Position numbers and translations under genes: made by a program. 64,000 bases of DNA from an uncultured Lentimicrobiaceae bacterium (lineage in GTDB: Bacteria > Bacteroidota > Bacteroidia > Bacteroidales > SKPS01). Position 1 is the first letter of the stretch. The number at the start of each line of letters is the position of its first letter. The DNA lies in NCBI GenBank assembly GCA_964652685.1, contig CAZZBS010000002.1, positions 57,497 through 121,496 on the forward strand. Direction: 5' to 3'. Shown here piece after piece: positions 27,496 to 48,229 of this stretch. The notes under the pieces were generated by a model, which saw nothing but the letters and a program-made list of their open reading frames with translations, had not been told where the DNA came from and searched no databases.

Positions 27496-27612
27496 ATGAA
27501 GATCAGAGCTTCAGTGAAAAAACGTACGCCCGAGGATAAAATCGTGAGGCGAAAGGGCAGGATTTACGTCATCAATAAAAAGAATCCCAAATACAAACAG
27601 CGTCAGGGCTGA
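27496..27612 (+). CDS. rpmJ: 50S ribosomal protein L36 (38 aa, below the ORF-track cutoff)
   Basis: Manual translation gives [38 protein letters not shown]. Confidence 0.95.
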
Positions 27613-27645
27613 TAACAGGATTGAAAACAATCAAAAGATCAATAT

Positions 27646-28026
27646 ATGGCAAGGATAGCTGGTATTGACATACCAAAAAACAAGCGTGGGGAAGTATCCC
27701 TTACTTACATCTATGGCATTGGCCGCAGTACCTCCAATCAGATACTGAAGGCCGTGAACATTGACCGGGACAAGAAGGTTCAGGATTGGACCGATGAAGA
27801 GCAGAACCTGATTCGTGCCTACATCAATGAACACCTGAAGATAGAAGGCGCTCTTCGTTCAGAGGTTCAGATGAACATCAAACGGTTGATGGACATTGGT
27901 TCATACCGCGGTATCCGGCACAGGATCGGTTTACCGGTACGTGGTCAGAGTACCAAGAACAACGCCCGTACCCGTAAGGGCAGGAAGAAGACGGTGGCAA
28001 ACAAGAAAAAGGCTGCCAAAGGTTAA
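27646..28026 (+). CDS. rpsM: 30S ribosomal protein S13
   Basis: Starts [14 protein letters not shown]. Confidence 0.99.
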
Positions 28027-28064
28027 TAGTTGAATCAACAATCAGAAGGAATAATTAAAATACC

Positions 28065-28454
28065 ATGGCGAAAAACACACGAAGCACCAAGAAACGTGTA
28101 GTAAAGGTTGATCCTGTTGGTAAGGCATTCATTCAGGCCTCATTCAACAACATCATCATTTCCTTGACCAATGATGCAGGACAGGTAATATCCTGGTCAT
28201 CTGCCGGTAAGATGGGATTCAGGGGTTCGAAGAAGAACACGCCTTACGCAGCGCAGATGGCTGCACAGGATGCATCCAAGACAGCATTCGATGCAGGCCT
28301 TCGTAAAGTGAAGGTGTATGTCAAGGGCCCCGGATCGGGACGTGAGTCTGCCATCCGGACCATCCATTCAGCGGGCATTGAGGTGACAGAGATCACTGAC
28401 ATCACCCCTTTACCACACAACGGCTGCAGACCACCTAAACGCAGAAGGGTATAA
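28065..28454 (+). CDS. rpsK: 30S ribosomal protein S11
   Basis: Contains [12 protein letters not shown] and [13 protein letters not shown]. Confidence 0.99.
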
Positions 28455-28500
28455 CCCGGCAGTAAATGTTTCAATCAAACAGAAAAATAACGATATCATT

Positions 28501-29106
28501 ATGGCAAGATACACAGGCCCACAGACCAAGATAGCCAGGAAATTCGGCGAGCCCATCTTCGGTGCCGACCGACACTTTGAAAAGAAAAAGTACCCGCCGG
28601 GTCAACATGGCGCCAACAAGCGCAGGAGAAAAATGTCGGAATACGGACTCCAGCTTCAGGAAAAACAGAAAGCCAAATACACCTATGGCATCCTGGAGCG
28701 TCAGTTCAGGAACATCTTCAAGAAAGCCAGCAGCAAAAGCGGGATTACCGGCGAGGTGTTGCTGCAACTTTGTGAGATGCGCCTTGACAACCTGGTATAT
28801 CGGATGGGTATAGCCCCGTCACGCCGGGCAGCCCGTCAGCTCGTCACCCACAAGCATATCCTGGTGAACGGGGAACCAATGAATATCCCCAGCCACGAAG
28901 CAAGAGTGCATGATATCATCAGCGTCAGGGAAAAATCAAAATCCCTTGAGGTCATCACTGACTCCCTGGCAGGAAGAGCCCATAAGTATGGCTGGATCGA
29001 ATGGGACGAATCCCTGAAAGCCGGGAAAGTGATCTCGATGCCCACCAGGGAGGAAATACCCGAAAACATCAGGGAACAGCTTATCGTTGAGCTTTATTCC
29101 AAATAA
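28501..29106 (+). CDS. rpsD: 30S ribosomal protein S4
   Basis: Starts [20 protein letters not shown]. Confidence 0.99.
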
Positions 29107-29160
29107 TCCACAGTCATCTGAGAGTTCATAGAGTGTTAACTTAATATAGGATCTGAATAC

Positions 29161-30153
29161 ATGGCATTATTAGCTTTTCAGAAACCAGACAAGGTGATCA
29201 TGCAGGAAGAAACCCCTTTCTTTGGGAAGTTTGAGTTTCGCCCGCTTGAACCGGGATACGGCATCACCATCGGCAATGCACTGAGAAGGATTCTTTTATC
29301 ATCCCTCGAGGGCTATGCCATCACCTCCATCCGCATCGAAGGGGTAGAACAGGAGTTCTCCACCCTCAAGGGTGTGGTGGAAGATGTTGTGGAAATCGTG
29401 TTGAATCTAAAGCAAGTGCGGTTCAAACAACAGATTGAAGACATCACAACAGAAAAAGTGAACCTTTCCATTACCGGACAGGATACCTTTAAAGCGGGAG
29501 ATATGAACCGTTTTCTGAGCAGTTTCCAGGTTTTGAATCCCGAACTGGTGATCTGTCGGATGGAGCCATCCATTACGATCAATATGGAGTTTACCATTGA
29601 AAGGGGTAGAGGATATGTTCCGGCAGAAGAGAACAAACCCATCAATGCTCCCCTGGGTACGATTGCCATGGATGCGATCTTTACACCGATAAAAAACGTG
29701 AAGTACGTGGTTGAGAATTTCCGGGTTGAGCAGAAAACCGACTACGAAAAACTGGTGATGGAAATCACGACCGACGGTTCGGTCTATCCCAAAGATGCTC
29801 TTAAAGAGGCAGCAAGGATCCTGATCCATCATTTCCTCCTTTTCTCTGATGAAAAAATCACCATTGATTACGAGGAAAAAATACCGGCTGAGGAGTTTGA
29901 TGAATCGTCACTTCACATGAGGCAACTGCTGAAAACCAAACTTGTTGACATGGACCTCTCGGTGAGGGCACTCAATTGCCTGAAGGCAGCTGAAGTGGAG
30001 ACATTGGGAGAATTGGTCAGGTACAACCGTAACGACCTGCTGAAATTCAGGAATTTCGGTAAGAAATCCCTTACCGAACTCGACGAGCTCATCAAGTCAA
30101 AGAACCTCACCTTTGGGATGAACGTTGATAAATACAAACTGGACAAGGAATAG
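29161..30153 (+). CDS. rpoA: DNA-directed RNA polymerase subunit alpha
   Basis: A 330-aa protein containing [14 protein letters not shown] and a C-terminal domain with [21 protein letters not shown]. Confidence 0.99.
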
Positions 30154-30184
30154 AAATAGAACAGAACAGGAAAAAAATTTTGAA

Positions 30185-30874
30185 ATGAGACACCGCAAAG
30201 CAATAAACCACCTGAGCCGAACCAGCTCACATAGAAAAGTTATGTTGTCGAACATGGCTTCGTCCCTTATCATCCATAAGCGTATCAGGACTACCCTTGC
30301 TAAAGCCAGGGTGCTCCGGGAGTATGTTGAACCGTTAATCACCCGCTCGAAAGAGGATACAACAAACAACCGCAGGGAGGTATTCAGCTATCTGCAGGAT
30401 AACAAGGCTGTGACGGAACTTTTCAGGGTGGTCTCACAGAAGGTAGCCGACAGGCCGGGAGGATATACCCGTATCCTGAAACTGGAAAACCGCCTCGGTG
30501 ATAATGCCCAGATGTGTTATATCGAACTTGTTGATTTTAACGAATTGTACACCAAGGGTGAAGTCTTGAAGAAGGGGGCAAAACGGACCAGGCGTGGCGG
30601 TAAAAAGGCTGAACCTGTAGCTGCAGTGAAAAAGGCCGCAGCCGTTGCAGTACCGAAGAAAGATAAAGCAGTTGAAGAGGAACCACTGGCAGAAATGACA
30701 CAGGAGCAAGAAGTAGAGGTGGATGAAGAGACTATTGCTGAAGTGGTCGGAGAACATGTTGAAGGAGTTGAAGACGAACCGGTTGCAGCAGCTGAGGAAG
30801 GAACCATGGAACCGCCCGAAGAAGGCACCACCGGCGAAGATACCCCTGAAGAGAAGAATGATAAACAAGGATAA
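30185..30874 (+). CDS. rplQ: 50S ribosomal protein L17 with a roughly 110-aa basic-then-acidic low-complexity C-terminal extension
   Basis: The conserved start is [25 protein letters not shown] at 30185. The ORF-track start at 30125 is an over-extension overlapping rpoA. The tail runs [16 protein letters not shown]...[26 protein letters not shown]. Confidence 0.96.
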
Positions 30875-30906
30875 GGAAAGAATCCTTGAACCGATCATAC
30901 CAAATA

Positions 30907-30941
30907 GGGGCAAGGCTGCATGTACCTTGTCCCTTTTTTTT
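30907..30941 (+). terminator. Rho-independent terminator closing the ribosomal superoperon
   Basis: The stem pairs GGGGCAAGG (30907..30915) with CCTTGTCCC (30925..30933): 9 bp including one G-T wobble, with a 9-nt loop. A T8 run follows at 30934..30941. Confidence 0.85.
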
Positions 30942-30959
30942 ACCTGCATGTCAAACTAA

Positions 30960-32261
<1,302 letters not shown>

Positions 32262-34293: not shown

Positions 34294-35217
34294 TCAGTCC
34301 GGGTTTACAAAACGGTCGATGCTCTCAATAAATTTCAGACAGAGATGTTCCTGAACAACCTCGTCGTGGTTTTTGCCAATGATCAGTTCAATGGTATTTT
34401 TTGGCATTGAACTGTTCCGAACCTGGTAAAACTCCGGCCGGTGGATGAAGATCACCGTGTTGGAAGCTGTCAGCAGGTAGGGTGGCAGCTCCTGGAGGGA
34501 GGGGAGCAGTCTGCCGTTGACCATTCCCGGTGTGGCTGGGAGTTCTGTGAAGCATACAACCGGTACATCCAGATCCCTGGCTGCATACTTGAGGGTCAGG
34601 ATCAGTTCTTCTGTCTCTGCATAACGGCGCTCAGGATCCTGAATATGGGAAGCATAGCTTTCAGGGCTATCGACAAAAATGATGTCAGCAATATGTTTGT
34701 TTCTTACCTGGTGACAGCGTAACAGCATTTCGGTGGCATCCAGTACAACAGAATCATCAATGAAAATACCGGCTGATGCAATATGCCGGATTTGGGAGAT
34801 GAGGTGTGCCTTGTCTGTTTCCTTTTGTAATCCATTCCTGATCTGACTAATCGAGTGACTTGTGTTGCTCTCGATGAGCCGGCTGATGATCTTCACCCCC
34901 GATCGACGGGGTGAAAACAGGGCTACCTTCCGGTCCAGTGACAAGGCAAGGTTCTGTACCAGGGACAGTAGAAAAGCGGTCTTACCGTTTCCCGGTCTAG
35001 TACCGACTGTGATCAGCTCTCCCCGTTTGAAGCCTTTTGTGATAATATCGATGTTCTCAAATCCAGATGGGATGTTCGGCTCTTCATACGCCGAATAATG
35101 CTTTTTAATATGCGGGTAATTCAGTGTCTGGTTGACCAACTCTCCGGCAGTGAAAAAACCAGACACTGCCAACGGCTCTGTGATGCCAGGCGTCTCTTTG
35201 ATCATCATTGATATCAA
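34294..35217 (-). CDS. DnaB C-terminal (RecA-fold) domain protein lacking the DnaB N-terminal domain, with degenerate catalytic motifs
   Basis: It aligns by eye to the DnaB C-terminal domain: GELITVGTRPGNGKTAFLLSLVQNLA (Walker A retained), IFIDDS, DLDVPVVCFTEL, and VIFIHRPEFY versus DnaB LIMFIYRDEVY. However, SLEM becomes SPRR, SQLNR becomes TELPA, and DLRESGSIEQDAD becomes SLQELPPYLLTASN. Confidence 0.7.
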   Translation of the reverse strand: MISMMIKETPGITEPLAVSGFFTAGELVNQTLNYPHIKKHYSAYEEPNIPSGFENIDIITKGFKRGELITVGTRPGNGKTAFLLSLVQNLALSLDRKVALFSPRRSGVKIISRLIESNTSHSISQIRNGLQKETDKAHLISQIRHIASAGIFIDDSVVLDATEMLLRCHQVRNKHIADIIFVDSPESYASHIQDPERRYAETEELILTLKYAARDLDVPVVCFTELPATPGMVNGRLLPSLQELPPYLLTASNTVIFIHRPEFYQVRNSSMPKNTIELIIGKNHDEVVQEHLCLKFIESIDRFVNPD

Positions 35218-35292: not shown

Positions 35293-35970
35293 TCATTTCC
35301 TGCCGTTGCCTGTGACAACCTTCCCCTCTGTATAGATGATCTGCTCTATCAACTCTCCCTCCGGTGACCAGATGCGCTCCCGGCCATGCTTGAGATTATT
35401 CCGGTAGGAAACCTCCCGGCTGATCCTGCCGTTCTTGTGATAACCTGTCATAACTCCGCTGCCTTCCGTAAAGGTGGCTTCACCGGCCTTCATCCCCTGT
35501 TCATCGAAATACTCCCATTTACCGTCATACAGACCTTCTTTGTATCGGCCTGAAATTTTCAATGCACCGGTCTCCCAGTAAACTTTGTACATGCCGTGCA
35601 ACACACCCTCCCTGTAATTTTTTTCTTCGGAGAGTGTCCCGTTGATGAGGTATCTCCTGCAGTTGCCATCCAGCATGTTGTTGCGGTAATGTTCCTCATA
35701 CTCAATATTCCCGTTATAATACCATCTGGTGACTTTACCATTCAGTTCATCATCTGTGTAAGGATATACGATCTCAACCCTGCCGTCTGTGAAGTAATAG
35801 GTTGAATTTCCATTTTTCATGTTGCCTTTATAGGATATTTCATACATCAGCTTTCCGTTATCATGGTAAGCCCGTTCGGTTCGTTTCCGCTGACATGAGG
35901 AGGTAAGAATTACGGGAAATCCGGTCAAGGTAATAATGAACACGATGAATAAAGGTACTTGCTTTTTCAT
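35293..35970 (-). CDS. MORN-variant repeat / YwqK-family lipoprotein (225 aa)
   Basis: It has a signal peptide plus lipobox (LTSSC), followed by at least 7 repeats of the Yx(N/D)GxxxxExxYxxGxxxG type (for example YHDNGKLMYEISYKGNMKNG, YWETGALKISGRYKEGLYDG). Confidence 0.8.
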   Translation of the reverse strand: MKKQVPLFIVFIITLTGFPVILTSSCQRKRTERAYHDNGKLMYEISYKGNMKNGNSTYYFTDGRVEIVYPYTDDELNGKVTRWYYNGNIEYEEHYRNNMLDGNCRRYLINGTLSEEKNYREGVLHGMYKVYWETGALKISGRYKEGLYDGKWEYFDEQGMKAGEATFTEGSGVMTGYHKNGRISREVSYRNNLKHGRERIWSPEGELIEQIIYTEGKVVTGNGRK

Positions 35971-35991: not shown

Positions 35992-37878
35992 TCATCTGGA
36001 TATAATAAGCATCAGGCGCAATGATTCCAGGTTAAAGTTGTCCCTTGCCGGATTCCAGAAATAGACATGGAGGAGGTCATTTCTTTTAAAACCGGCAGGC
36101 AGGCTTGCCGTAAAGAAATAACGGCCATCGGTATACTTCCAGTCAGAAAGTTGCAGTCCGTTCCACGAAAGGGTTTTGTTTGATTTCTTTGAGGAGGTTG
36201 TAAAGACAAGTTGCAGTTCTTTCAGCGCTGTTGTCTCCTGGCCTTTGAATTCGCAGTGTACGAGGATGTTTTTTTTACCCGGTTTCACTGGTAAAGCCTT
36301 TTCAAATACCGGCAGGAATTCATCCTGGGCTGACAGGCTCATGGGATGCTCCAATGTACGCATGTCAGCAAGTACAAGGGTGTCGAATGGATAGTGGATT
36401 TCGGTGTTGCCAGGGTATTTCCCAAAGCGGAAAAATTCACCCTGCCCTCCGTAATCTCTGTAACGCAGAAGGTGAGGATAATGGAATCTCAGAATGGATG
36501 GGATCATGGGGTCAGCCGGCCTGAGCCATGCATAGGCGATCACCGGGGCTGAAAGGGTGTCAAGTGCCCGGTGGAGTGCGGTTGCCTCTGCTGAACCGGT
36601 TATGGAATAAAACAATGGTTCAGGTATTTTACATTCCTTTTCAAGGTAATAGCGGATATACCATGGATCATTTACATGCACTGCCCAGGCAGAACTTTTC
36701 TCTTCCTTCAGGGTTTGACAGATCTCCCCGGATGTTTTTTTGAAATCACCATAATGATCTTTCGTAAAATACCTGGCTCCCAGGATCAGATGCAGGAGCA
36801 GGATAATCGGGAAAATGGATGCCAGGGAAAGGGTAAGGTGACTCCTGTCATTCCGGAAGCCGGCAAAAAGAAACATAAGCAGGAAAGGGAATGCAAAAAG
36901 CAGGATAGAATGCTGCAGGATCGGGTTGATGAAGATAGAGTAGAGATAGGCGAAAGCAAGGGGTATGAAGTACCACAGTGCTGTGATCAGCATAAATTTC
37001 CTTTTATCACGATGTTGCTGCAGGCGGGTGGTTCTGACAAGGAAAGGTATCGAAAACAACAGGACTAAGATAGCCAACCACCATGATCCGTTAAAGAGGT
37101 ACAGCAGGTGATCGCCCAACCATAAAGCATTGGGTGGAGGCAGCCAGAGCGATAGCCCTCCGCGGCTTACCTGGGTTATGGTGATCGATATATGGGGTGA
37201 AAAAAGGATCACCGCCCCGAGGCCAGACAGCAGATAGGGGAGGAGGGTCTTTCTCCGTAAAAAGAACAATCCGGTAATGCCGATCATACCGGCCATGAAG
37301 AAGCTGAAATAATGGTTGTACATTGCTAGGGCAAATGACACGGCCATACCGGCACTATGCAGAAAGCGGCTCCTCGGGGTGGATCCGGTTGAGAACAACA
37401 GCCTCTCCCAGAAGAGTGTCCCTGCAAGGATGAACAGCAGCCCGGTGCTGTAAGGCCTGGCCAGCTGGCTGTATAAGAGCGGAAATTGAAGTAAGGCCAG
37501 AGCTGATGCTGCAAACCAGGCAGTGCTTCTCCCGAACCATCGGTTGGCAAGCAGGAACAGCAGCCATACCGACAGAACACCGGCAACTACAAATGGAAGC
37601 CTGATCCAGAAAGGTGTTGTACCGGCAAGATCTGACCAGTAATACAGAAAAACCTGGACAAAGGCGGGATGCGCATCCACCCGTACTGCATGTTCAATAA
37701 GAGCTTGAAATCCCTCAAAACGGAGCCGGTACAGTGCGCTGAGCTCATCATTGAAATAAGAGCGTTCAGCAAGGCCGGCCAGCCGGAGAATGAGGGCAAC
37801 AACCAGGAGGAGTACGACGGGAATATATTCCTTCAGGAAGGGCTTTTTATGATTAGGTATGTCCATGCTGTCATCCAT
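35992..37878 (-). CDS. Family 39/83-type (ArnT/PMT-like) membrane glycosyltransferase (628 aa)
   Basis: More than 10 hydrophobic helices occupy the N-terminal 370 aa. An early loop carries an acidic motif (YFNDELSALYR), as in GT-C enzymes. A C-terminal soluble domain of about 250 aa follows. Confidence 0.7.
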   Translation of the reverse strand: MDDSMDIPNHKKPFLKEYIPVVLLLVVALILRLAGLAERSYFNDELSALYRLRFEGFQALIEHAVRVDAHPAFVQVFLYYWSDLAGTTPFWIRLPFVVAGVLSVWLLFLLANRWFGRSTAWFAASALALLQFPLLYSQLARPYSTGLLFILAGTLFWERLLFSTGSTPRSRFLHSAGMAVSFALAMYNHYFSFFMAGMIGITGLFFLRRKTLLPYLLSGLGAVILFSPHISITITQVSRGGLSLWLPPPNALWLGDHLLYLFNGSWWLAILVLLFSIPFLVRTTRLQQHRDKRKFMLITALWYFIPLAFAYLYSIFINPILQHSILLFAFPFLLMFLFAGFRNDRSHLTLSLASIFPIILLLHLILGARYFTKDHYGDFKKTSGEICQTLKEEKSSAWAVHVNDPWYIRYYLEKECKIPEPLFYSITGSAEATALHRALDTLSAPVIAYAWLRPADPMIPSILRFHYPHLLRYRDYGGQGEFFRFGKYPGNTEIHYPFDTLVLADMRTLEHPMSLSAQDEFLPVFEKALPVKPGKKNILVHCEFKGQETTALKELQLVFTTSSKKSNKTLSWNGLQLSDWKYTDGRYFFTASLPAGFKRNDLLHVYFWNPARDNFNLESLRLMLIISR

Positions 37879-37901: not shown

Positions 37902-38678
37902 TTATTTTCCGGCCGTTAAGGGGTTTCTTTGTCTGGCCGCTTCAAAAAGGATAATACCTGCAGCTACGGAAACATTCAGTGAACCGATGCCACCGTATTG
38001 GGGGATCCTAACCTGATGATGGCTCATTTTGAGCAATGGTGCAGCGATCCCGGTCTCCTCCGATCCCATCACCAGGCATAACGGGCCGGTCAGAGGGGCT
38101 TGGTAATACAACTCTTTCCCTTTTTCCGTAACGGATACCAGCGTCAATCCCATTTCCATTAAGGATACGGCACTTCTAAAGATATTCGGGGTTCTGCATA
38201 CAGGTACTTTTAACAAGGCACCGGCAGAGGTTTTTATAGCTTCCGCATTGATCCGTGCCCCTCCTTTCTCAGGGATCACGATGGCATCGATCCCTGCACA
38301 TTCAGCCGTCCGCGCGATAGCGCCAAAATTCCTGATGTCTGTAACGTGGTCGAGCAGAAGGATGAAAGGATCTTTCCCTGCCCGGAAAACAGTTTCAATC
38401 ACTGTATCCAGTAACTGGTATTCAACAAGGGAAATCAGCGCCACTACTCCCTGGTGGTTTTTGCGGGTGTAACGGTTCAGTTTTTCTTCAGGAACATACT
38501 GAAAAGGGATATGGTGGCGACGGAGGAGGTCAAACAGTTCCCTGAACCCTTCCCCCCGGTTCTCCTTGCGGATGAAGACCTTGTCAATGATACGCCCGGC
38601 TGCGACTGCCTCAGCAACAGGCCGGATACCATACATGAATTCTTCGTTACGTATGTTTGCGTCCATTAACGTCTCCAA
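37902..38678 (-). CDS. rlmB: 23S rRNA (guanosine-2'-O)-methyltransferase RlmB (SpoU/TrmH family). The start is uncertain; M at 38636 is also possible.
   Basis: It has an N-terminal SpoU substrate-binding block (YGIRPVAEAVAAGRIIDKVFI) and SPOUT motifs (NFGAIARTAECAG, LVMGSEETGI, IPQYGGIGSLNVSVAAGI). Confidence 0.88.
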   Translation of the reverse strand: METLMDANIRNEEFMYGIRPVAEAVAAGRIIDKVFIRKENRGEGFRELFDLLRRHHIPFQYVPEEKLNRYTRKNHQGVVALISLVEYQLLDTVIETVFRAGKDPFILLLDHVTDIRNFGAIARTAECAGIDAIVIPEKGGARINAEAIKTSAGALLKVPVCRTPNIFRSAVSLMEMGLTLVSVTEKGKELYYQAPLTGPLCLVMGSEETGIAAPLLKMSHHQVRIPQYGGIGSLNVSVAAGIILFEAARQRNPLTAGK

Positions 38679-39925
38679 CTGTTTACCATCTGATACCAGC
38701 TTGTTTTGTAGCTGGTGGCCCTGTCAAGCAGATAATCATTGTCTGTGAAAGGATTGTTCATTTTTATGAAGATGAAGGTCAGGGATAACAGATGACGTGA
38801 TTCCCCGTAAGTCCAGACCTCGGCAGTTTCAGTCCGCTGAACCAGGTTGGGCGGCCCGTACATGATATAAATCATCCCTCTGTCGGTCTTCCAACCATCC
38901 TGATAGGATGAGAAAAGATAATTGGCTTTTTCGATTCTCCGGTAATATTCTTTGATCAGTTTTTTTGCCCTCAGTTCATTGCCTGCATGCTGGATCCAGA
39001 AGCGGTCCACGGCCTCTTTCAGGTCAGGCGCTTTGGCAATGGCATCGTATTCTTTTGTGGTGGTGATGTATCGTAATGGGGAAACCATCTGGGCCGATTG
39101 GTTGATCCAGGGAAAAGATACACTTCTGGCAAACAGGGTATATCCTGTCCGGCTGGTCGTGTCAGTCGTGATGTGATAGATCCCGGGTTTGGAAAACTGC
39201 AATGATGGGGTCTTACCTTCGGTGAAGGGTATGCTGAAGAGTGAATCAGCGGCATAATCGAAATACTGCACCGGTACAGTGGTAAAGGGGGGCATGGCGA
39301 CAGGGAATGAATCGGTATAATACCGCACGGTGACAGACTGATCGGTAATGATGCTGCTGATGATGCGATATTGTTTGTCAGTGCTTATGTGAATGGTATT
39401 GACAGGATCTCCTGCATGGTCGAGCAGCAGATAGTGGTACCGTCCGGGAGGCCAGGAGGGGATCAAATGGAAATATTGTTCATTGACATCCCCCGTCTTC
39501 AGGTCTTCGAGCTTAAGATACAGCATTTTCCCCTCAGGATTGCCGGTATAGATATCTGTCGTAATGTTTTCTTCCATCCCGGCATCAGGTCTTTGCAGAT
39601 AAAAATAGAAAGTAGCGCTGTCATTCCCGGTGTAATTCCCTTTGGCATCCATCATCCGGTAATGCAACCTGAAAACACGCATGCTGTCCATTCCCTTTTC
39701 TGCCGGGGGCTGATACCGGACAGGGATGGATGCACTCAACCGGAGAGAATCGGTGGTAAACTGGTAAAGGGAATAGAAAGGCAGGGGGGTATGATCGGTG
39801 ATGGTGTAAGCACCCGAGAGGTTCTGATGTTCCATTCTCCGGGAAGGATAACAGGAAAAAAGCGAGGCATGCAGAACAAACAGGACAACATATACTAGCT
39901 TATTCTTCATCATCTGGATTTTCAT
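38666..39925 (-). CDS. GWxTD domain lipoprotein (419 aa; a start at M5/M6 is also possible)
   Basis: A lipoprotein signal (VVLFVLHASLFSC) and the GWxTD signature GWKTDRGMIYIMYGPP near the C-terminus. Confidence 0.8.
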   Translation of the reverse strand: MKIQMMKNKLVYVVLFVLHASLFSCYPSRRMEHQNLSGAYTITDHTPLPFYSLYQFTTDSLRLSASIPVRYQPPAEKGMDSMRVFRLHYRMMDAKGNYTGNDSATFYFYLQRPDAGMEENITTDIYTGNPEGKMLYLKLEDLKTGDVNEQYFHLIPSWPPGRYHYLLLDHAGDPVNTIHISTDKQYRIISSIITDQSVTVRYYTDSFPVAMPPFTTVPVQYFDYAADSLFSIPFTEGKTPSLQFSKPGIYHITTDTTSRTGYTLFARSVSFPWINQSAQMVSPLRYITTTKEYDAIAKAPDLKEAVDRFWIQHAGNELRAKKLIKEYYRRIEKANYLFSSYQDGWKTDRGMIYIMYGPPNLVQRTETAEVWTYGESRHLLSLTFIFIKMNNPFTDNDYLLDRATSYKTSWYQMVNSWRR

Positions 39926-40082
39926 CGGCCTTTTTCACGGTTCCGGAGGTCTCTTTCAGTTTCTCCAACAGTTCAAGATGTTTTTTCAGAGGGACAGACT
40001 TTGCATCGTAGTATTGTCGTGTCAGGTACCATGCAATGGCCAGTCCCGCAAAACAACCGGCAAGGAAATATACAGCCGGCAT
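39900..40082 (-). CDS. Tiny single-pass membrane protein with a charged tail (60 aa)
   Basis: It starts MPAVYFLAGCFAGLAIAWYL (TM helix) and continues with a K/E-rich tail. It is wedged between the propeller stop (6-nt gap) and the GWxTD start (overlap). Confidence 0.5.
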   Translation of the reverse strand: MPAVYFLAGCFAGLAIAWYLTRQYYDAKSVPLKKHLELLEKLKETSGTVKKADENPDDEE

Positions 40083-40088
40083 GGCAGT

Positions 40089-41246
40089 CTATTTAAGGTA
40101 AATCACCCAGAAATCGCGTTTCCCCTCACCGTCCGAACGGGTGTATCCGCAAACGGCGCATTCGTTACTGCCAGTGGCAATTACGGCATAGGCCCGGTCT
40201 TCATCGGGTCCGCCAAAGGTTTCCTGCCATAGTTGTTTTCCGGTTTTGTCGAATTTCATCAACCAGAAATCATAACTACCTTCGCCATAAGAGGTCGTGT
40301 ATCCGGATACAATCGTTCCCCCGTCGGTGGTTTCACAGGCGCCGGTTGCTGATTCATCCTTAGCGGTACCATAGGTTCTTTCCCAGTCGTCCCAGCTTTC
40401 TGGTGTAAACTGAACTACCCAGTAGTCGGCATATCTTTCCCCCTTGGGCTGAGTGCTCCCGGAGAAAACATATTCACCGGTGCTCTTCAGTAACAAGTGA
40501 TTTCCCAGGTCTTTATTAATACTTCCGTAATTCTTCCTCCACTCCCGTCGTCCCTCTTTGTTGATCTTGATCATCCACAGGTCGCTCTCTCCGTTCGCAT
40601 TGGAGAAAGTCGTCCCGCCAATGATCAGGCTGCTGTCCTTCGGGTGCTCTGTAATTGAATTGCCCAGGTCGGCACCTCTTCCACCTTCGCTTTTCCGCCA
40701 TATCCTCCCCCCCTTGGTGTCAATCTTCAGGATCCAGATATCAAAATTGCCTGAACCTATCGATTTCGTCGATCCTACTATGGCATAGTTGCCATCAAAG
40801 GTTTGTATAAGGTCATTGCCGACATCATGTTTGGAGCCACCATAAATCCCTTCCCAAAGCTTGTTCCCCATACTGTCTGTCTTCACAAAGAAAATATCCC
40901 TCTTCCCTTTTCCTTTCGAAGTTGTTGACCCTACAATGGCATATCCGTTGTCACTGGTCTGGATGATAGCATTGGCCACCTCATCCCCTTTTTCACCATA
41001 CGTCTTGTCCCATTCGAGCTTCCCCTGGGGGTCAAGTTTGATCACCCATGCATCTTTGCCACCAAATCCTTTTGATTCGGTCATTCCGCAGATGACAAAA
41101 CCGCCATCGTGCGTGCGGATTATATCGTATGCCTCATCGTTGTTTGGGCCACCGAATGTCTGTGCCCATAAAATTTGGGGTGACTGTGCCCATAACGCCG
41201 TTGACAAAACAAGCAGACAAATGAACAAGAGTATGTTTTTTTTCAT
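40089..41246 (-). CDS. Secreted 7-bladed beta-propeller-like repeat protein (385 aa)
   Basis: Signal peptide MKKNILLFICLLVLSTALWAQ, followed by seven consecutive repeats of about 50 aa. Each repeat begins W-(x)3-(Y/F/E)-G-(G/x), contains DGG/DNG-(F/Y)-x-I-x-G, and ends D-x-W-(V/I/L)-(I/M/V)-K. Confidence 0.75.
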   Translation of the reverse strand: MKKNILLFICLLVLSTALWAQSPQILWAQTFGGPNNDEAYDIIRTHDGGFVICGMTESKGFGGKDAWVIKLDPQGKLEWDKTYGEKGDEVANAIIQTSDNGYAIVGSTTSKGKGKRDIFFVKTDSMGNKLWEGIYGGSKHDVGNDLIQTFDGNYAIVGSTKSIGSGNFDIWILKIDTKGGRIWRKSEGGRGADLGNSITEHPKDSSLIIGGTTFSNANGESDLWMIKINKEGRREWRKNYGSINKDLGNHLLLKSTGEYVFSGSTQPKGERYADYWVVQFTPESWDDWERTYGTAKDESATGACETTDGGTIVSGYTTSYGEGSYDFWLMKFDKTGKQLWQETFGGPDEDRAYAVIATGSNECAVCGYTRSDGEGKRDFWVIYLK

Positions 41247-41321
41247 GCTGGTGATATTTTGAGGGATTGATATTCAGATTGAAACAATCCTGTTCAGTAG
41301 GTTTCGGTAAACTTCCCGTAA

Positions 41322-41329
41322 CAAACATA
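41322..41329 (-). promoter_or_regulatory. -7 box TATGTTTG upstream of the propeller gene
   Basis: The minus strand reads TATGTTTG, an exact TAnnTTTG match, 76 nt upstream of the ATG at 41246. Confidence 0.4.
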
Positions 41330-41386
41330 CATGAAATTTGGCAGAATAGTATCTGAAAGGATGAAAAAAGTTTATCGGGACAGATT

Positions 41387-43210
41387 TCAGAATAATGAAA
41401 CCAGACCAACATGGAGCCTTCCCGTTCGGAAGTCAAACGGATTACCCTGTTGAATACCATAAGCATAACTCATCTGGATGATGCCGGCAGGAGAAGGAAT
41501 GGCCACACCCAGTCCAAAGCCCCAGGGAGTATCGGTAAAATAGGAATGCTGAAGTGACTTTTCGTACCAACATCCGTCGATAAAAAGTTTAAAATGAGAT
41601 TCCTGCTCAAAACGGTACCGGACTTCCAGGGAGTAGAGCAGGTAAGAAGATGCCCTGAGGCTGTTTTCATCAATACCTCTGATGGATTGGATACCGCCGA
41701 AGAGGAAAAGTTCGTTTTCAAGTCCGGATCCTCCATACAGGAAAGAACCTGCGACCGATGGCCTGATCACCCATCGTTCCGTTACCGGAGTAAAAGTCTC
41801 CAGGGAAAAATGACCGTTTACCTGCCGTTGGTTTCTTTCAGTATCTTCGAACAATGCCTCCGGGATGTCGGGAGAGGTGAGTAGTTTTTTCTGTCCTGCT
41901 GCTATGTCGCCTGCAAGACTGATCCCTCTGGAGGGATTCCTGGGATGGTCTGTTCTTGTGTGATGGTATTCTATTCCGAACAGGGAAGCCGAATAATCGG
42001 TCCAGGGAGGGAGGAAAGTGTACTGATCGAAAATAGTCCTGTCGAGCACCTTGCTGTTTTTCCGCTGATAATAGGCACTGAACCATGATCCTGGCCCTGA
42101 CCTGAGCAGCAGTCCGCCACGCTGATTCAGGGTGTAATAGATTTCCCCCTGTTTGTAAAGGTCGAAGTTGTACATTATCCCGAACGGCAATAACGGAAGG
42201 AAGGGCTGACGGTATGAGATGATCAGGTGTTGGTCCCCCTGGATCCCGTTCCATCTGATCTCCATCTGCTCGGCCTGAGCAAAAGCATTGGTCAGGTTAA
42301 GTACCATTTCGCCCGAAAAAATGAGCTTCCGGGGATTTTCCTTATCAGGCCCAAAGCCAAGAATACCGTTAAAATCTGATGATTTGGCTTTTTCAAGGTT
42401 AAGCAGGATCCTGGCTTTATTACTTTCTGTGAGAATAAGGCTGTAGGATTGCACCTGTTTCACAAACGGCAGCGAGTTGATCTGACGGTCAATATCTCTC
42501 ATCAGCAGGTTGTTGTAAGGCTGCTTTTCCCTGATCCTGATCAATTTCTGAAGTACGACATTGCTGATGGCCGGCCCACCTTTGATTTCAAGGGTATCCC
42601 AGGTGTAAAAGGCCCCTTTTTCTATCCTGGAAAGCGCAACAACGGTATCATCCGACAGGGTTATATCCTGTATGACAGCTTTCGCCAGTGGATATCCGTT
42701 CTGGTTCAGGTAGCCGACAATCTTGACCAGTGTATTCCTGATCCAGGTGATATCCCTGCCTTCCATGCGGGACCTGAATCCTGCACTGTAGGCGGCAGGA
42801 AGTGATTCATCATCGAAATTGATCCTGAAAGGTCCGGGTCGGTTACCGGTGTAAAACCAGACGTATGCCGTGTCATCCACTTTGGTGACCGAATCTACGG
42901 AGGCTGTGATATATCCGAGTTCACGGGTAGATTGGATCAGTTTGAAGAGAGCTTTGTTGAACTCCTCTTCCGATCCGGTTTTTTTTTTATTGAACGCCAT
43001 GACTCTTTTCTCCAGCACCGGATCCCGGATAACAGGAAATTGAACGTTTGAAGGGAACTCCTGGGCTGAGATGGGTTGAATGAGGCAAATCAGCGACATA
43101 AATCCCAGGAGGACAGATCTCCTGGCAAGGAGACCTGCCGGGAAGTCACAGTATCGGGCCTGACTGTTCATTGAAAGATCTGCCACAGGGCTGTTTCGGT
43201 TGGCCTTCAT
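41387..43210 (-). CDS. BamA/TamA-family (Omp85) outer-membrane protein (607 aa; a start at an internal Met is possible)
   Basis: The N-terminal hydrophobic signal region ends in PISAQE. POTRA-like segments are followed by a beta-barrel with a C-terminal aromatic residue (HVGLVSLF). Confidence 0.75.
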   Translation of the reverse strand: MKANRNSPVADLSMNSQARYCDFPAGLLARRSVLLGFMSLICLIQPISAQEFPSNVQFPVIRDPVLEKRVMAFNKKKTGSEEEFNKALFKLIQSTRELGYITASVDSVTKVDDTAYVWFYTGNRPGPFRINFDDESLPAAYSAGFRSRMEGRDITWIRNTLVKIVGYLNQNGYPLAKAVIQDITLSDDTVVALSRIEKGAFYTWDTLEIKGGPAISNVVLQKLIRIREKQPYNNLLMRDIDRQINSLPFVKQVQSYSLILTESNKARILLNLEKAKSSDFNGILGFGPDKENPRKLIFSGEMVLNLTNAFAQAEQMEIRWNGIQGDQHLIISYRQPFLPLLPFGIMYNFDLYKQGEIYYTLNQRGGLLLRSGPGSWFSAYYQRKNSKVLDRTIFDQYTFLPPWTDYSASLFGIEYHHTRTDHPRNPSRGISLAGDIAAGQKKLLTSPDIPEALFEDTERNQRQVNGHFSLETFTPVTERWVIRPSVAGSFLYGGSGLENELFLFGGIQSIRGIDENSLRASSYLLYSLEVRYRFEQESHFKLFIDGCWYEKSLQHSYFTDTPWGFGLGVAIPSPAGIIQMSYAYGIQQGNPFDFRTGRLHVGLVSLF

Positions 43211-43243: not shown

Positions 43244-43939
43244 TTAAGTAACGAACGGAATGGGATTCCAGTCTATGGGTTGTATAGCATGTTGAATAAG
43301 GTACTGATTTGCCTGCGAGAAATGACGGCAACCGAAAAAACCTCTGGCTGCCGACAGGGGAGAAGGGTGGGGTGCGGTAAGGATCAGGTGTTTGTTTCGG
43401 TCAATGAGGGGAATTTTCTTTGCGGCCGGGTTTCCCCAAAGCAAAAAGACGATATGTTCCCGGGTTTCCGATAGGTGACGGATGGCTGCGTCAGTGAAAG
43501 TTTCCCATCCATGGTTCTGATGTGATGTTGGTTGGTTAGCCCGCACCGTAAGGGTAGCATTGAGAAGGAGTACACCTTGTCGGGCCCATTGGATCAGATT
43601 ACCACTTACAGGTACCGGGACCCCCAGGTCATTCTGCAATTCCTTAAAAATATTGACCAGGGATGGGGGTTTCGGGATACCTTCCGGCACCGAAAAACAC
43701 AATCCATGGGCCTGACCAGGACCATGGTAGGGATCCTGACCCAGGATGACCACCTTTACCTCATGGACAGGTGTATGGTCAAAGGCAGAAAAAATGTTTT
43801 TTCCGGCAGGGTAAACAGTATATTTTAACCTCTCTGTCAGCAGATATTGCTTCAGGGCCTTAAAATAGGGAGCACTGAATTGGTCGGACAGGGCTTGTCT
43901 CCAGCTCGCTTCAATCTGAGGTTTTACCTCCTCGTCCAT
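43244..43939 (-). CDS. ung: Uracil-DNA glycosylase (family 1)
   Basis: Contains VVILGQDPYHGPGQAHGLCFSV and HPSPLSA. Confidence 0.96.
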   Translation of the reverse strand: MDEEVKPQIEASWRQALSDQFSAPYFKALKQYLLTERLKYTVYPAGKNIFSAFDHTPVHEVKVVILGQDPYHGPGQAHGLCFSVPEGIPKPPSLVNIFKELQNDLGVPVPVSGNLIQWARQGVLLLNATLTVRANQPTSHQNHGWETFTDAAIRHLSETREHIVFLLWGNPAAKKIPLIDRNKHLILTAPHPSPLSAARGFFGCRHFSQANQYLIQHAIQPIDWNPIPFVT

Positions 43940-44218: not shown

Positions 44219-44347
44219 CACTTCCAGTACGCAGGTTTTCCGGATTATATGCCTTATAAGCATCTTATCCGGTCCGGAAACCCAGGGCAGCTGTTATTTG
44301 CGGGTGTGCTGCTATATTTTGATACATCTTTCAGGAAAGAGCAAAAC

Positions 44348-45097
44348 ATGCATTTTCGTTTATCATATCTACTCTTCTTTATGATGGTACAGATCTTACC
44401 ACAAGGTAGGGTTTTGTCTCAGGAGGCAGATGTGCCGCAGTTCATACTGTCAAGAGAACGGAGTGCATACCTGATAGGGCATACGCGTGGTTTCGGTTTT
44501 GGTTATCAGCAGGGAAAGATCCTGAATATTTATTCAACACTATTCTGGGAGGTTCAGTTTGCCACCATGAAGCACCCCAAGGAATACCGTCGTACCAACG
44601 AATCTTTCCCGAACACCAGAACATACAGTTACGGTAAACTGAACCGGATTTACATGTTGAGGGGAGGTCTGGGACTGCAGCGGATCTATGCTGATAAGCC
44701 CTACTGGGGAGGGGTGCAGGTACGGTATCATTTTTCCGGAGGACTGAACCTCTCGGTGGCAGAACCGATGTATTTATACATTCTCTATTACAACAGCAGT
44801 GATGGTAAGTTTTATCGTTTGTTGGAGAAGTATGATCCAGAAACCCATTTTACAGACAATATTTACGGCAGGGGGCCTGTGGGCAAAGGATTGCTGGAGT
44901 CGAAAATATACCCGGGGATCTACCTTAAAGGGGGCCTTAGTTTCGATTATGGTGATCAACAGGCTATGATCCGCTCCCTTGAGGTTGGCATTGCTGCAGA
45001 TGCATTCCTGAAAACCATACCCATTATGGCCTTTACACGAAATCCGAATCCTTATCTCACACTTTACCTCGCACTCCACATCGGTAACAGAAAATAG
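44348..45097 (+). CDS. Hypothetical exported protein, probable beta-barrel (249 aa from the revised start)
   Basis: An internal Met gives the signal peptide MHFRLSYLLFFMMVQILPQGRVLSQE. A near-consensus -7 box (TATATTTTG, 44313..44321) lies inside the longer ORF-track model 44249..45097. Confidence 0.6.
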   Translation: MHFRLSYLLFFMMVQILPQGRVLSQEADVPQFILSRERSAYLIGHTRGFGFGYQQGKILNIYSTLFWEVQFATMKHPKEYRRTNESFPNTRTYSYGKLNRIYMLRGGLGLQRIYADKPYWGGVQVRYHFSGGLNLSVAEPMYLYILYYNSSDGKFYRLLEKYDPETHFTDNIYGRGPVGKGLLESKIYPGIYLKGGLSFDYGDQQAMIRSLEVGIAADAFLKTIPIMAFTRNPNPYLTLYLALHIGNRK

Positions 45098-45349: not shown

Positions 45350-48229
45350 ATGAAAAACAGAACATTATTATTCAGTTTCGCTCTGTTGCCCCTTGTGGCA
45401 TTTTTGGTTGTGATCGCTACGCAGCACACGCCTGAGCGCAGCTATTCACCCCGTTTCAATATGCAGGACCAGTCGGTTACCGGAGCTGCTGAATACTGGA
45501 AAATCATCCGTAACAATCAGATCACCGGGGAAGTTGACGTGCAGGATGTGCAGCAGGCATTGCTTGAAATTAAACAGTTAAAAACATCCAAGACACTTTC
45601 CTGGACATGGGACGAGATGGGACCGGATAATCTTGGCGGCAGAACCAGGGCCATCCTTTTTGACAAGGACAACCCGACCATCATGTACGCCGGATCTGTC
45701 AGCGGTGGACTATGGAAATCCACTACATCCGGGAGTACCTGGGTCAAGGTTACAACCATTTCGGATAATTTAATTATAGCTTCTATTACACAGGCACCTA
45801 ACGGGGATATCTACGTCGGGACGGGTGAAGGTTTTTACCCGGGAACAGGAGATGGCACCAGGGGATTTAACGGAATAGGTATTTACAAGTCTTCTGACGG
45901 TGGCCAAACATTTTCACTATTGTCAAACACCAGTACCTGGACCTATATCAATGAAATGGCTGTTGACAAGAACAACGGGTATGTGTATGCTGCTACCAAA
46001 GCCGGATTGAAGATCTCTTCCGATGGAGGGGCCACATGGAGTGTCACGCCTACACCACTTACTATTACCAACTCCAATGCTGATGACGTGGATATCGCAA
46101 CCGACGGTACCGTTGTGCTCTCCATCAATAAAGCCTGCTACATTGCGACCAATGGTGTCGATTTTGTCCGACGTTCCGGAGGCAGTCTGACCCTGCCCAA
46201 TGCCGGTTCACGTATGGAACTGGCTATTGCACCGTCAGACCCCAATTACATCTATGCCAGCCTTGCCGCGTCCAATGAATCTACACAGGGCGTCTTCCGT
46301 TCAGTCGACAAAGGGGAAACATGGACCCAGATCGCCCCTGCTGCAACCACTGGTTTCGCCATCCACGGAAGTCAGGGATCCTATAACAATACCATTGAAG
46401 TTTTTCCCGATAACAAAGACAAGATCCTGGTCGGAGGGATTAACATATGGACCTGGTCACTGAATGGTACCTGGACCCAGATCACCTCAGGAAGTTTTTC
46501 AGAATCAAGCCCTCTCTATGTTCATGTGGATATTCATGAGTTTGCATTCCATCCGACCAATCCCGATATCGTCTTTGTCGGCTGTGACGGCGGTATTCAC
46601 CGTTCCCTTGATGGCGGCGTTACCTGGAATATGATGAATAAAAATTACAGTACCATTCAGTATTATGCCATCACCTCCAGTGGATCCGGCCAAATACTCG
46701 GGGGAACGCAGGACAATTCTTACCAGTTCGTTGATTTCAAAGGCAATACTCCAAGGTCGGCACGTCAGCTCTGGATCAATGATGGCGGCTATGCAGCTAT
46801 CTCACAGATAAATCCGGAAGCCTATTTCGTTTCGGGCCAGTACGGTCTTGCTGCCAGAACAGCCACTGACGGTGAATTCTGGCAAAAAGCTTACAATGGG
46901 ACCAGTACCACCACACCCGATTTTTTCAGCAGCAGGATGCTAAGTTCGATTGAAGGTGGAACACCGGGAACGAACTTCTCCCATTTTGTCACTCCCCTCA
47001 TTCTTTGGGAGAGCGTGAAAACCTTTGATTCAAAAGATTCCATTATGTTCATTGCTGATACCAACTATATCGCAGGGGAAGTCATTTCCGTCCGTTCGCA
47101 CAAGCATAACGGTTACCCATTCAAACATACACTTCTTGCAGGGCTTAACAAGGGTGACTCAATGTTGATCCAGAATCCTATACAAAGCGTATTCGTGATT
47201 GCAGGCCGTACCTCACTGTGGATGACCAGGGAAGCAATCGATTTCAGCGGAACACCCACCTGGTGGCGTATCGGTTCCATCTCCGGCGGCATTATCCAGA
47301 CCATCGCTTTCTCCGCTGACGGTGATCATATCTTTGCCGGTACAACGGCAGGCGGTGTATTCCGTTTCTCTAACATCCACCAGGCCTATGATTCAACCAG
47401 TGCCGATATCAGTAGTTCTACCCAGGTGATCACAAGGACACAGATTAGTACCTGGTCAGGGAGGGCTATCACCTCCATCGCCGTGGATCCCCTTGACAAT
47501 GACCATGTGGTTGTAACCCTTGGGAACTATGGGAATACAAATTATGTGTACCGAACCACAAATGCCACCGATGCCACTCCAACCTTTACCTCTAAACAGG
47601 GAACCGCTGTAGCTACCAAGCTTCCCACTATGCCGGTCTATTCTTCTCTGATTCCATTGTATCATCCGAAAATGTTGATTGTCGGGACGGAATTTGGAAC
47701 CTATATCTGTGAGGATATCACCAAAACGCAGCCTGTATGGGTAGAAGCCAACCAAGGCATGGACCGTGTGCCTACCCTTATGTTGCACCAGCAGGTTACC
47801 AACTTCCCTTATACCTTCATCATCGTCGGGGAAGGAAACGAAACAGCCCTCTTCGAATATAACCAGACCACCAACTATGGCGGAATTTATGCAGGAACCC
47901 ACGGCCGTGGAGGCTTCAGAAATCTCGATTTCGTGAATATTGAAAAACCGGTTGCCGAAAAACCATCCACTTTCCGATCCAACCTGCTCATCTATCCTAA
48001 TCCTGTCGAATATGATGCTACGGTCGTCTTTAATCTGAACGCTCAGGAAAAAGTGACGGTCAGGATCTTTGATATCACAGGGAAACTGATTGCTTCAACC
48101 GATGCCGGATGGATGCACAAAGGCCGGAACGTGTTCAGACTGGAGATGTCACATCTGAAACGTGGCAACTATATGGTACAGGTACTTGCAGGGAATGAAA
48201 GCCGTACATCCAAGGTGATTAAAAAATAA
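45350..48229 (+). CDS. BNR/Asp-box (sortilin/VPS10-like) repeat protein with a T9SS C-terminal sorting domain (959 aa)
   Basis: It has a signal peptide and Asp-boxes SSDGGQTF, SSDGGATW, SVDKGETW, SLDGGVTW. The C-terminal approximately 80 aa start LLIYPNPVEYDATVVF and end TSKVIKK (type A CTD pattern). Confidence 0.85.
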   Translation: MKNRTLLFSFALLPLVAFLVVIATQHTPERSYSPRFNMQDQSVTGAAEYWKIIRNNQITGEVDVQDVQQALLEIKQLKTSKTLSWTWDEMGPDNLGGRTRAILFDKDNPTIMYAGSVSGGLWKSTTSGSTWVKVTTISDNLIIASITQAPNGDIYVGTGEGFYPGTGDGTRGFNGIGIYKSSDGGQTFSLLSNTSTWTYINEMAVDKNNGYVYAATKAGLKISSDGGATWSVTPTPLTITNSNADDVDIATDGTVVLSINKACYIATNGVDFVRRSGGSLTLPNAGSRMELAIAPSDPNYIYASLAASNESTQGVFRSVDKGETWTQIAPAATTGFAIHGSQGSYNNTIEVFPDNKDKILVGGINIWTWSLNGTWTQITSGSFSESSPLYVHVDIHEFAFHPTNPDIVFVGCDGGIHRSLDGGVTWNMMNKNYSTIQYYAITSSGSGQILGGTQDNSYQFVDFKGNTPRSARQLWINDGGYAAISQINPEAYFVSGQYGLAARTATDGEFWQKAYNGTSTTTPDFFSSRMLSSIEGGTPGTNFSHFVTPLILWESVKTFDSKDSIMFIADTNYIAGEVISVRSHKHNGYPFKHTLLAGLNKGDSMLIQNPIQSVFVIAGRTSLWMTREAIDFSGTPTWWRIGSISGGIIQTIAFSADGDHIFAGTTAGGVFRFSNIHQAYDSTSADISSSTQVITRTQISTWSGRAITSIAVDPLDNDHVVVTLGNYGNTNYVYRTTNATDATPTFTSKQGTAVATKLPTMPVYSSLIPLYHPKMLIVGTEFGTYICEDITKTQPVWVEANQGMDRVPTLMLHQQVTNFPYTFIIVGEGNETALFEYNQTTNYGGIYAGTHGRGGFRNLDFVNIEKPVAEKPSTFRSNLLIYPNPVEYDATVVFNLNAQEKVTVRIFDITGKLIASTDAGWMHKGRNVFRLEMSHLKRGNYMVQVLAGNESRTSKVIKK

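Follow-up and report, generated by a model that had tools for sequence, protein, structure and literature searches.

Within a 64,000-nucleotide (nt) stretch of DNA from an uncultured Lentimicrobiaceae bacterium (assembly GCA_964652685.1, contig CAZZBS010000002.1, positions 57,497 to 121,496 of the forward strand; the whole stretch is referred to below as the window), four consecutive minus-strand genes encode a TamA-sized Omp85-family protein, a secreted seven-bladed beta-propeller, a single-pass membrane protein of 60 amino acids (aa), and a lipoprotein with the GWxTD signature. A previous reading of the letters alone (the sequence-only reading) had proposed that they form a dedicated outer membrane assembly or surface exposure module. 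Comparison of gene order across Bacteroidota indicates that they are probably a lineage-specific rearrangement of an old, mixed-function chromosomal block and not a dedicated machine. The ancestral order would have been ung–TamA-like Omp85–rmuC–GWxTD–rlmB–PMT_2 glycosyltransferase. In this lineage only, a secreted-propeller gene, together with its own promoter-like element, would then have been inserted between Omp85 and rmuC, a state kept in the relative L168. The body of rmuC would next have been lost almost wholly, leaving about 60 codons of membrane anchor that still overlap the GWxTD start, which is the state of the window and of L081, L083, and L169; in some relatives the stub would have been lost as well. 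With a cytoplasmic gene removed and a periplasmic one added, four envelope genes would have come to stand in a row by accident. The genes concerned, together with the rest of their co-directional run, are as follows (window coordinates).

43244-43939, minus strand: ung (uracil-DNA glycosylase), NF003589 at 3.6e-101, above cutoff; both the co-directional run and the conserved block begin with it.
41387-43210, minus strand: Omp85-family protein, 607 aa, TamA-sized, with a signal peptidase I (SPI)-type signal (…ISAQ/EF) and without a lipobox.
41318-41329, minus strand: promoter-like box TATGTTTGTTAC, of the Bacteroidota -7 type TAnnTTTG, 76 nt upstream of the propeller ATG in a 140-nt gap.
40089-41246, minus strand: secreted seven-bladed beta-propeller, 385 aa, of the delta-60/SBBP/CylK-propeller type.
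39900-40082, minus strand: single-pass membrane open reading frame (ORF), 60 aa, a putative rmuC 5' stub (membrane anchor and start of the coiled coil).
38666-39925, minus strand: GWxTD lipoprotein, 419 aa, in which lipobox Cys25 is followed by two Ig-like beta-sandwich domains and, at the C-terminus, the GWxTD alpha/beta domain.
37902-38678, minus strand: rlmB (23S rRNA Gm2251 2'-O-methyltransferase), TIGR00186 at 1.4e-54, above cutoff.
35992-37878, minus strand: PMT_2 (GT39/ArnT-like) membrane glycosyltransferase, 628 aa, PF13231 at 2.7e-09.
35296-35970, minus strand: MORN_2 repeat protein, Pfam match at 8.5e-20, continuing the co-directional run.
34297-35208, minus strand: DnaB_C-like ATPase, Pfam match at 2e-36, continuing the co-directional run.

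Gene order was examined from the GWxTD side by a scan of one genome per species, which returned more than 567 GWxTD loci, and the best 80 were analyzed. All 80 were from Bacteroidota, with GWxTD identities of 31 to 38% and labels that included Bacteroidales, Flavobacteriales, Chitinophaga, and Sphingobacteriia. Genes in all compared loci were simple ORF calls; for the GWxTD-side counts they were clustered per locus, and the denominators are the loci with enough sequence. The same-strand gene directly upstream of GWxTD was rmuC in 47/69 loci, encoding a family of about 440 aa that matched Pfam RmuC, a membrane-anchored DNA recombination/nuclease-like protein, at 1e-102. Directly downstream, rlmB was found in 29/73 loci, and the PMT_2 glycosyltransferase was the second gene downstream in 8/58, being present in all close relatives of the window with enough sequence. 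The two commonest neighbors of GWxTD, rmuC and rlmB, are thus genes for cytoplasmic functions. Omp85 lay within three genes upstream of GWxTD in only 15/56 loci, and the propeller in none of the 56, its slot being held by rmuC. Where Omp85 was present, the widespread order was ung–Omp85–rmuC–GWxTD–rlmB(–PMT_2). The tightest conserved pair around GWxTD was rmuC–GWxTD (for example, L020:6892-9508 and L010:8667-11221; the window equivalent is 38666-40082), with the rmuC stop and the GWxTD start often overlapping by 1 to 17 nt. There is no obvious rationale for a membrane-anchored, nuclease-like RmuC beside the gene of a periplasmic lipoprotein.

From the Omp85 side, a metagenome scan with an alignment of 21 Omp85 orthologs as the query gave 80 loci at 27 to 33% identity. 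Here ung was directly upstream of Omp85 in 33/64 loci, as it also was in all close relatives of the window that keep Omp85. Within 6 kb downstream of Omp85, GWxTD was detected in 23 and rmuC in 18 of 38 loci. The propeller was absent next to Omp85 in about 76/80 of these metagenome loci and in all 19 genome loci carrying Omp85. On a neighbor-joining tree of Omp85, built without support values, the putatively ancestral state with both rmuC and GWxTD downstream was spread throughout, direct Omp85–GWxTD adjacency without rmuC occurred in at least four separate clades, and the 15 loci without GWxTD downstream fell in about ten separate places. These counts show a real, moderate linkage of Omp85 with GWxTD that does not exceed those of either gene with ung, rmuC, or rlmB. 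One locus (L163:999-4900) read ung–Omp85–rmuC–rlmB with no GWxTD between rmuC and rlmB; here the block has lost GWxTD independently.

The relatives closest to the window, whose GWxTD proteins are 48 to 59% identical to its own, were then compared with L168, the next locus out (GWxTD 38% identical). Besides the window, only L081 and L083 showed the exact four-gene order, both reading ung–Omp85–propeller–(57- to 63-aa ORF)–GWxTD–rlmB–PMT_2 with GWxTD about 55% identical to that of the window. L085 had the same order with the small ORF missing, and the stub was also absent in L166 and in L170, the latter with Omp85 and propeller adjacent. L169 carried propeller–stub–GWxTD without ung or Omp85 upstream. 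In L172, ung–Omp85–propeller was followed directly by rlmB, GWxTD being gone from the locus. The contig carrying P0012 started so near GWxTD that the upstream genes lay outside it. L168 read ung–Omp85 (580 aa)–propeller (385 aa, 60% identical to that of the window)–RmuC (447 aa, intact)–GWxTD–rlmB–PMT_2, indicating that the propeller was inserted first and rmuC truncated afterward. Every adjacency is, on this evidence, breakable even in a narrow lineage, the opposite of what a four-part machine predicts. The proposal of a dedicated four-gene assembly module was therefore not borne out: its order is confined to three loci, and broader loci differ. Synteny, which the sequence-only reading had itself named beforehand as the refuting test, largely fails, with rmuC holding the propeller slot in broader loci and adjacencies breaking in close relatives.

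The 60-aa ORF was traced to rmuC by several observations. When the RmuC hidden Markov model (HMM) was run against a six-frame translation of the whole window, this ORF was the best match, covering HMM positions 1 to 48, while the RmuC domain itself (about 290 residues, PF02646) was absent from the translation and no second rmuC was found there. Conversely, when an HMM of three of the small ORFs was run against the 1175 genes of the 80 loci, the top 14 non-self matches were all RmuC N-termini (best, 3e-5), and the other signal-peptide or membrane proteins, of which there were many among these genes, all ranked below them. The ORF also aligned colinearly with the N-terminus of the L168 RmuC and occupies the rmuC slot, including the rmuC habit of overlapping the GWxTD start. 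It is, by these profile and positional matches, the surviving N-terminal membrane anchor of RmuC. For the 24 transmembrane codons compared in four lineages, pN (nonsynonymous) was 0.14 to 0.31 and pS (synonymous) 0.67 to 0.91. The stub peptide, with low pN against pS near synonymous saturation, therefore appears to be maintained by purifying selection. It is likely a small inner membrane peptide that is still translated. A literature search on RmuC with Bacteroidetes and lipoprotein gave nothing useful.

The spacing of the genes and the intergenic sequence were used to consider how the run may be transcribed. The four ORFs, their lengths and spacing, the GWxTD motif, the lipobox Cys, and the TATGTTTG box were all as the sequence-only reading had given them, and its annotation of all four products as envelope-targeted was correct. 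Read from the sequence, 140 nt separate Omp85 from the propeller and 6 nt the propeller from the small ORF, which overlaps GWxTD by 26, 14, or 11 nt depending on the choice of ATG. GWxTD in turn overlaps rlmB by 1 nt (TAATG) or 13 nt, and rlmB is followed after 23 nt by the glycosyltransferase. At the other end, ung stops only 33 nt from the Omp85 ORF. Such tight and overlapping spacing is compatible with the co-transcription and translational coupling that had been suggested.

Located at 41322-41329 (minus strand), the TATGTTTG box matches the Bacteroidota -7 consensus, TAnnTTTG. This pattern was not enriched window-wide (29 matches versus 34 expected), and the box is credible only because it is conserved in relatives: TA(TG/TA)TTTGTTAC was found in the Omp85-to-propeller gap in 8/8 loci (the window and seven relatives), amid otherwise diverged intergenic sequence. 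The promoter-like box noted after the barrel gene has therefore held up, and the conserved TATGTTTGTTAC box is very likely a real promoter element. Its conservation between Omp85 and the other three genes suggests that Omp85 is partly separately transcribed. In a scan of the window, terminator-like sites were absent from the intergenic gaps; their count equaled expectation and all lay inside genes. A sigma-70 promoter scan of the window gave fewer sites than the shuffled expectation and was uninformative on Bacteroidota promoters. Two transcription units with possible read-through would fit this layout, a first transcript of ung–Omp85 and a second one from the TATGTTTGTTAC box carrying propeller–stub–GWxTD–rlmB–glycosyltransferase and beyond, within which overlapping stops and starts would couple translation.

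For the window Omp85, the barrel domain was present (PF01103 at 6.7e-10, 39.4 bits versus a cutoff of 24), and a Pfam POTRA match was borderline but above its cutoff (22.6 versus 21.3 bits). A profile of the family searched against the PDB matched BamA and TamA chains in both their barrel and their POTRA regions, BamA at 1.7e-18 (best, Flavobacterium johnsoniae BamA, 9n2d) and TamA at 8e-9, with positions 50 to 334 matching BamA POTRA domains at 1e-17 to 1e-14. By length there would be about three POTRA domains. In the loop-6 (L6) motif, (V/I)RG(F/Y), for which the consensus is LRGFDEESI and the window has IRGIDENS, R511 and G512 were invariant in the 21 orthologs. The window protein and all 18 orthologs listed had SPI-type signals ending in …AQ or …SQ and no lipobox. 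Identification as BamA was rejected on length (607 aa is too short) and on the NCBIfam BamA score of 50.5 bits versus a cutoff of 297; TamL was rejected for lack of a lipobox Cys in the window protein or its orthologs. Membership in a canonical translocation and assembly module (TAM) was likewise rejected, the neighbors being ung and the propeller (rmuC in other taxa) with no adjacent TamB. Among the adjacent genes of all loci examined, no TamB-like gene was found next to Omp85. Two further features of these ORFs were noted. A run of ten A on the coding strand at window positions 42979-42988, inside the Omp85 ORF (codons N-K-K-K-T), could be a slippage-prone tract. At L166:3837-5716, Omp85 was called as a 220-aa fragment only, preceded by about 1.2 kb without a gene call, and may be a pseudogene or reflect an assembly or frameshift error.

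In the proteome tables for F. johnsoniae, Fjoh_0403 (SPI) and Fjoh_0404 (SPII) are very abundant membrane-fraction proteins (PMC12045153). The "TamA homolog" of that species, Fjoh_0402 (Giovannercole et al. 2025, PMC12045153), has 566 aa, three POTRA domains, and a 16-strand barrel. Its gene can be deleted, the protein was detected only upon TamL depletion, and a TamA homolog was reported in 11/30 Bacteroidota species (PMC12045153). By analogy, the window Omp85 is likely to be an insertase of the Fjoh_0402 kind: auxiliary, TamA-sized, and not a lipoprotein. To us, Fjoh_0403 and Fjoh_0404 presumably resemble a SusC/SusD-type pair more than rmuC–GWxTD, and the F. johnsoniae locus may therefore be without this synteny.

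The propeller consists of seven repeats of 52 to 53 residues after an SPI-type signal, with no lipobox and no Pfam match. By sequence, residues 28 to 381 matched CylK beta-propeller chains at 3.4e-22. In CylK, the N-terminal domain and the propeller together form the active site; for the window propeller, no catalytic role can be inferred. Its orthologs comprised 16 clusters at 59 to 77% identity, the next matches having at most 44% identity and other architectures. The wider family is very large and generic, of the delta-60/DUF5122 type, with homologs carrying PF17164 and PF26094, many with type IX secretion system (T9SS) C-terminal domains or collagen repeats, and members in several bacterial phyla and archaea. 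The window propeller is likely to act in the periplasm, as a binding or scaffold protein. Two unrelated metagenome loci, L093 and L150, had larger propeller-family genes (1042 and 529 aa) beside Omp85, downstream and on the opposite strand. Propeller-family genes were also present in 3/80 unrelated flanks (L004, L013, and L028), and with this similar background the two cases are probably coincidence.

The GWxTD protein matched PF20094 over the full profile length (6.2e-61, 205.6 bits versus a cutoff of 26.9) and TIGR04514 at 2.3e-27. The motif GWKTDRGMIYIMYGPP was present, with G344, W345, and D348 invariant and T347 at least 90% conserved. Invariance also extends to E292, W310, R319, R349, E369, W371, and Y373. 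The lipobox reads LFSC, with Cys25 at least 90% conserved in aligned homologs; a lipobox-like Cys was present in 66/79 homologs. Bacteroidota surface lipoproteins carry an acidic lipoprotein export signal (LES) just after the lipidated Cys. In the 66 GWxTD lipoproteins, D/E accounted for only 0 to 6% at positions +2 to +9 after the Cys, and K/R were enriched at +5 and +6; the window protein continues C-YPSRRME and does not match the LES. Lacking acidic residues there, GWxTD proteins should face the periplasm and not the cell surface, which argues against the surface exposure function proposed earlier, and the window protein is likely a periplasm-facing lipoprotein.

The confident AlphaFold model of the full-length GWxTD protein (predicted local distance difference test [pLDDT], 87.7; predicted template modeling score [pTM], 0.83) showed the signal and lipobox, two beta-sandwich domains of Ig-like type, and, bearing the motif, a helical-plus-sheet domain at the C-terminus. 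Foldseek searches with this model returned only generic Ig-like sandwiches, those of transglutaminase C-terminal barrels, with TM-scores of about 0.2. The C-terminal domain modeled alone (residues 270 to 419; window 38669-39118, minus strand) had a pLDDT of 90.5, and a fold search with it against the PDB gave nothing significant (best E, 0.28). A resemblance to NTF2/cystatin-like folds at that value is weak and was not trusted, and a BamE-like identity was unsupported by the fold search. By sequence, a single-query search of the PDB gave noise only (E of at least 0.07) and a profile search no matches. At 50% identity this large family comprises 5779 clusters (E of at most 1e-3), the best 150 listed being nearly all 400 to 450 aa. 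The sequence-only reading knew of no description of GWxTD proteins, and literature searches on GWxTD, PF20094, and TIGR04514 likewise found no relevant paper, giving only two case reports on unrelated matters.

Several of these observations weigh against an accident of gene order. At 61% on the Omp85 side, the Omp85–GWxTD linkage is far above random, and the repeated direct adjacency of the two in at least four clades without rmuC could reflect selection to keep both together. Among relatives the propeller is 59 to 77% identical, compared with about 48 to 59% for Omp85 or GWxTD; it stays by GWxTD without Omp85 in L169 and by Omp85 without GWxTD in L172, so that it may have gained a link to either or both. 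Purifying selection appears to act on the stub, which is therefore not simply decaying. The shared synteny block would reflect a partnership if the TamA-like Omp85 and the GWxTD lipoprotein were a two-component core acting jointly at the outer membrane, a barrel and its periplasm-facing lipoprotein partner (compare BamA with its lipoproteins and TamA with TamB), with rmuC, ung, and rlmB as passengers. Both proteins are envelope-targeted, and known Omp85 proteins are established to act with lipoproteins (PMC12611786, PMC12045153). GWxTD falls no more than 6 kb downstream in 23/38 Omp85 loci, the pair is directly adjacent without rmuC in L137/L154, L156/L160, L002, and L064/L067/L074, and it stays in one run in the window lineage. 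We nevertheless regard such a core as rather unlikely. Forty-one of 56 GWxTD loci have no Omp85 in the three upstream genes, 15/38 Omp85 loci scattered over the tree have no GWxTD downstream, L172 keeps Omp85 and the propeller without GWxTD, and L169 keeps GWxTD without Omp85. GWxTD is more tightly linked to rmuC and rlmB than to Omp85, from which it is parted in the window lineage by the conserved promoter-like box, and a TamA homolog in 11/30 Bacteroidota species (PMC12045153) contrasts with the 5779 clusters of the GWxTD family. Slightly more doubtful is the extended proposal that a Fjoh_0402-type Omp85 and GWxTD constitute an unrecognized two-partner outer membrane system, into which the window lineage recruited the propeller and the RmuC-derived peptide; the repeatedly re-compacted shared locus would then be the genomic trace of that system.

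The conservation of the propeller and of the stub bears on a new lineage module, in which the propeller, the RmuC-derived peptide, and GWxTD would be a co-transcribed periplasmic unit under the conserved promoter; this could be, for example, a propeller–lipoprotein complex tethered or regulated by a small membrane peptide. The box in all eight loci, the 6-nt gap and the overlap that join the three genes, the identity of the propeller among relatives, the selection on the stub transmembrane codons, and the persistence of the trio without Omp85 in L169 are all consistent with it. We consider it improbable all the same, because the stub is missing in L085, L166, and L170, L172 has lost GWxTD though the propeller remains, the same transcript would also carry rlmB, the glycosyltransferase, the MORN protein, and the DnaB_C-like ATPase, and the selection signal comes from only 24 codons in four sequences. 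Less probable still is a pairing like that of BAM (beta-barrel assembly machinery), with the propeller as a BamB-like accessory that would dock on the neighboring Omp85 at its POTRA domains. BamB is itself a beta-propeller and binds BamA POTRA domains, Omp85 and propeller are adjacent in the window, L081, L083, L085, L168, L170, and L172, and L093 and L150 have opposite-strand propeller-family genes beside Omp85. The two proteins differ in kind, however, BamB being an eight-bladed PQQ-like lipoprotein and the window propeller seven-bladed, without a lipobox, and of the delta-60/CylK type. Outside the lineage the propeller is missing beside Omp85 in about 76/80 metagenome loci and 19/19 Omp85-bearing genome loci, L093 and L150 being at the background level of 3/80 unrelated flanks; within it, the conserved promoter-like box stands between Omp85 and the propeller, and L169 keeps the propeller without Omp85. 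A lineage-specific rearrangement of an older block is accordingly preferred over these alternatives.

If the four genes are an accident of gene order, they should be neither annotated nor followed up as one unit. They would then provide a worked example of how a coherent-looking cluster arises, by propeller insertion and rmuC decay, with the middle state preserved in L168. They would also illustrate the origin of a small protein from a gene remnant, the RmuC anchor persisting as an ORF of about 60 aa apparently under purifying selection. In addition, the comparison offers a lead on two unstudied Bacteroidota envelope proteins, an orphan, non-lipoprotein TamA-like Omp85 and the GWxTD lipoprotein, to which it is linked in about 60% of Omp85 loci.

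The run as a whole comprises nine co-directional genes, in which DNA repair, rRNA modification, and envelope functions are mixed. As it continues through the MORN_2 and DnaB_C-like genes, whose order after the glycosyltransferase also recurs in relatives, the four-gene boundary is arbitrary. The four ORFs have homologs in the hundreds to thousands and are therefore not chance ORFs. Upstream and divergent from ung, on the plus strand, are a 282-aa secreted protein with no Pfam or NCBIfam match (44249-45097) and a 959-aa BNR/sortilin-like protein that carries a C-terminal sorting domain for the T9SS (45350-48229). Their families (f8, 13 members, and f13, 9 members, respectively) recur beside ung in distant Bacteroidota, indicating that the conserved block extends upstream. 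The block lies beside ribosomal-protein operons, and the surrounding window is core housekeeping DNA; these operons (fusA-like to rplQ-like), followed by enolase and UbiD, occupy 13528-31000 on the plus strand and place the locus in the core, stable chromosome. Elsewhere, the window ends within a very long ORF (57321-64000, plus strand) that exceeds 2226 aa and whose start resembles a signal peptide.

Compared with known systems, the arrangement resembles BAM, including the Bacteroidota BAM (PMC12611786), in having the genes of a beta-propeller and a lipoprotein close to that of an Omp85 barrel. BamA, however, has about 800 to 900 aa and five POTRA domains, whereas the window Omp85 has 607 aa; BamB is an eight-bladed lipoprotein, whereas the window propeller is seven-bladed and unlipidated, and the partners are not conserved together. 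With TAM and TamL–TamB the window Omp85 shares a TamA-like length and a weak direct PDB match to TamA (8us1), but it lacks an adjacent TamB/AsmA-like gene and lipidation. The closest counterpart appears to be Fjoh_0402, to which it is likened by published size, signal type, and context and not by sequence: 566 aa compared with 550 to 640 aa in the ortholog group (607 aa in the window), an SPI signal and not a lipobox, an Omp85 barrel with a short POTRA region, no tamB alongside, and a patchy distribution in Bacteroidota. The propeller shares seven blades and a sequence match with the CylK/delta-60/SBBP propellers, but is without the N-terminal domain of CylK and without the T9SS C-terminal domain carried by many of its wider family. 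The 60-aa ORF corresponds to the N-terminal transmembrane helix of RmuC and the beginning of its coiled coil, with the whole RmuC domain of about 290 residues gone; it would be a remnant or an exapted peptide and not an RmuC. The components belong to catalogued families, and the points of note are a small protein derived from rmuC, an intermediate state that has been preserved, and a GWxTD domain that is a structural orphan.

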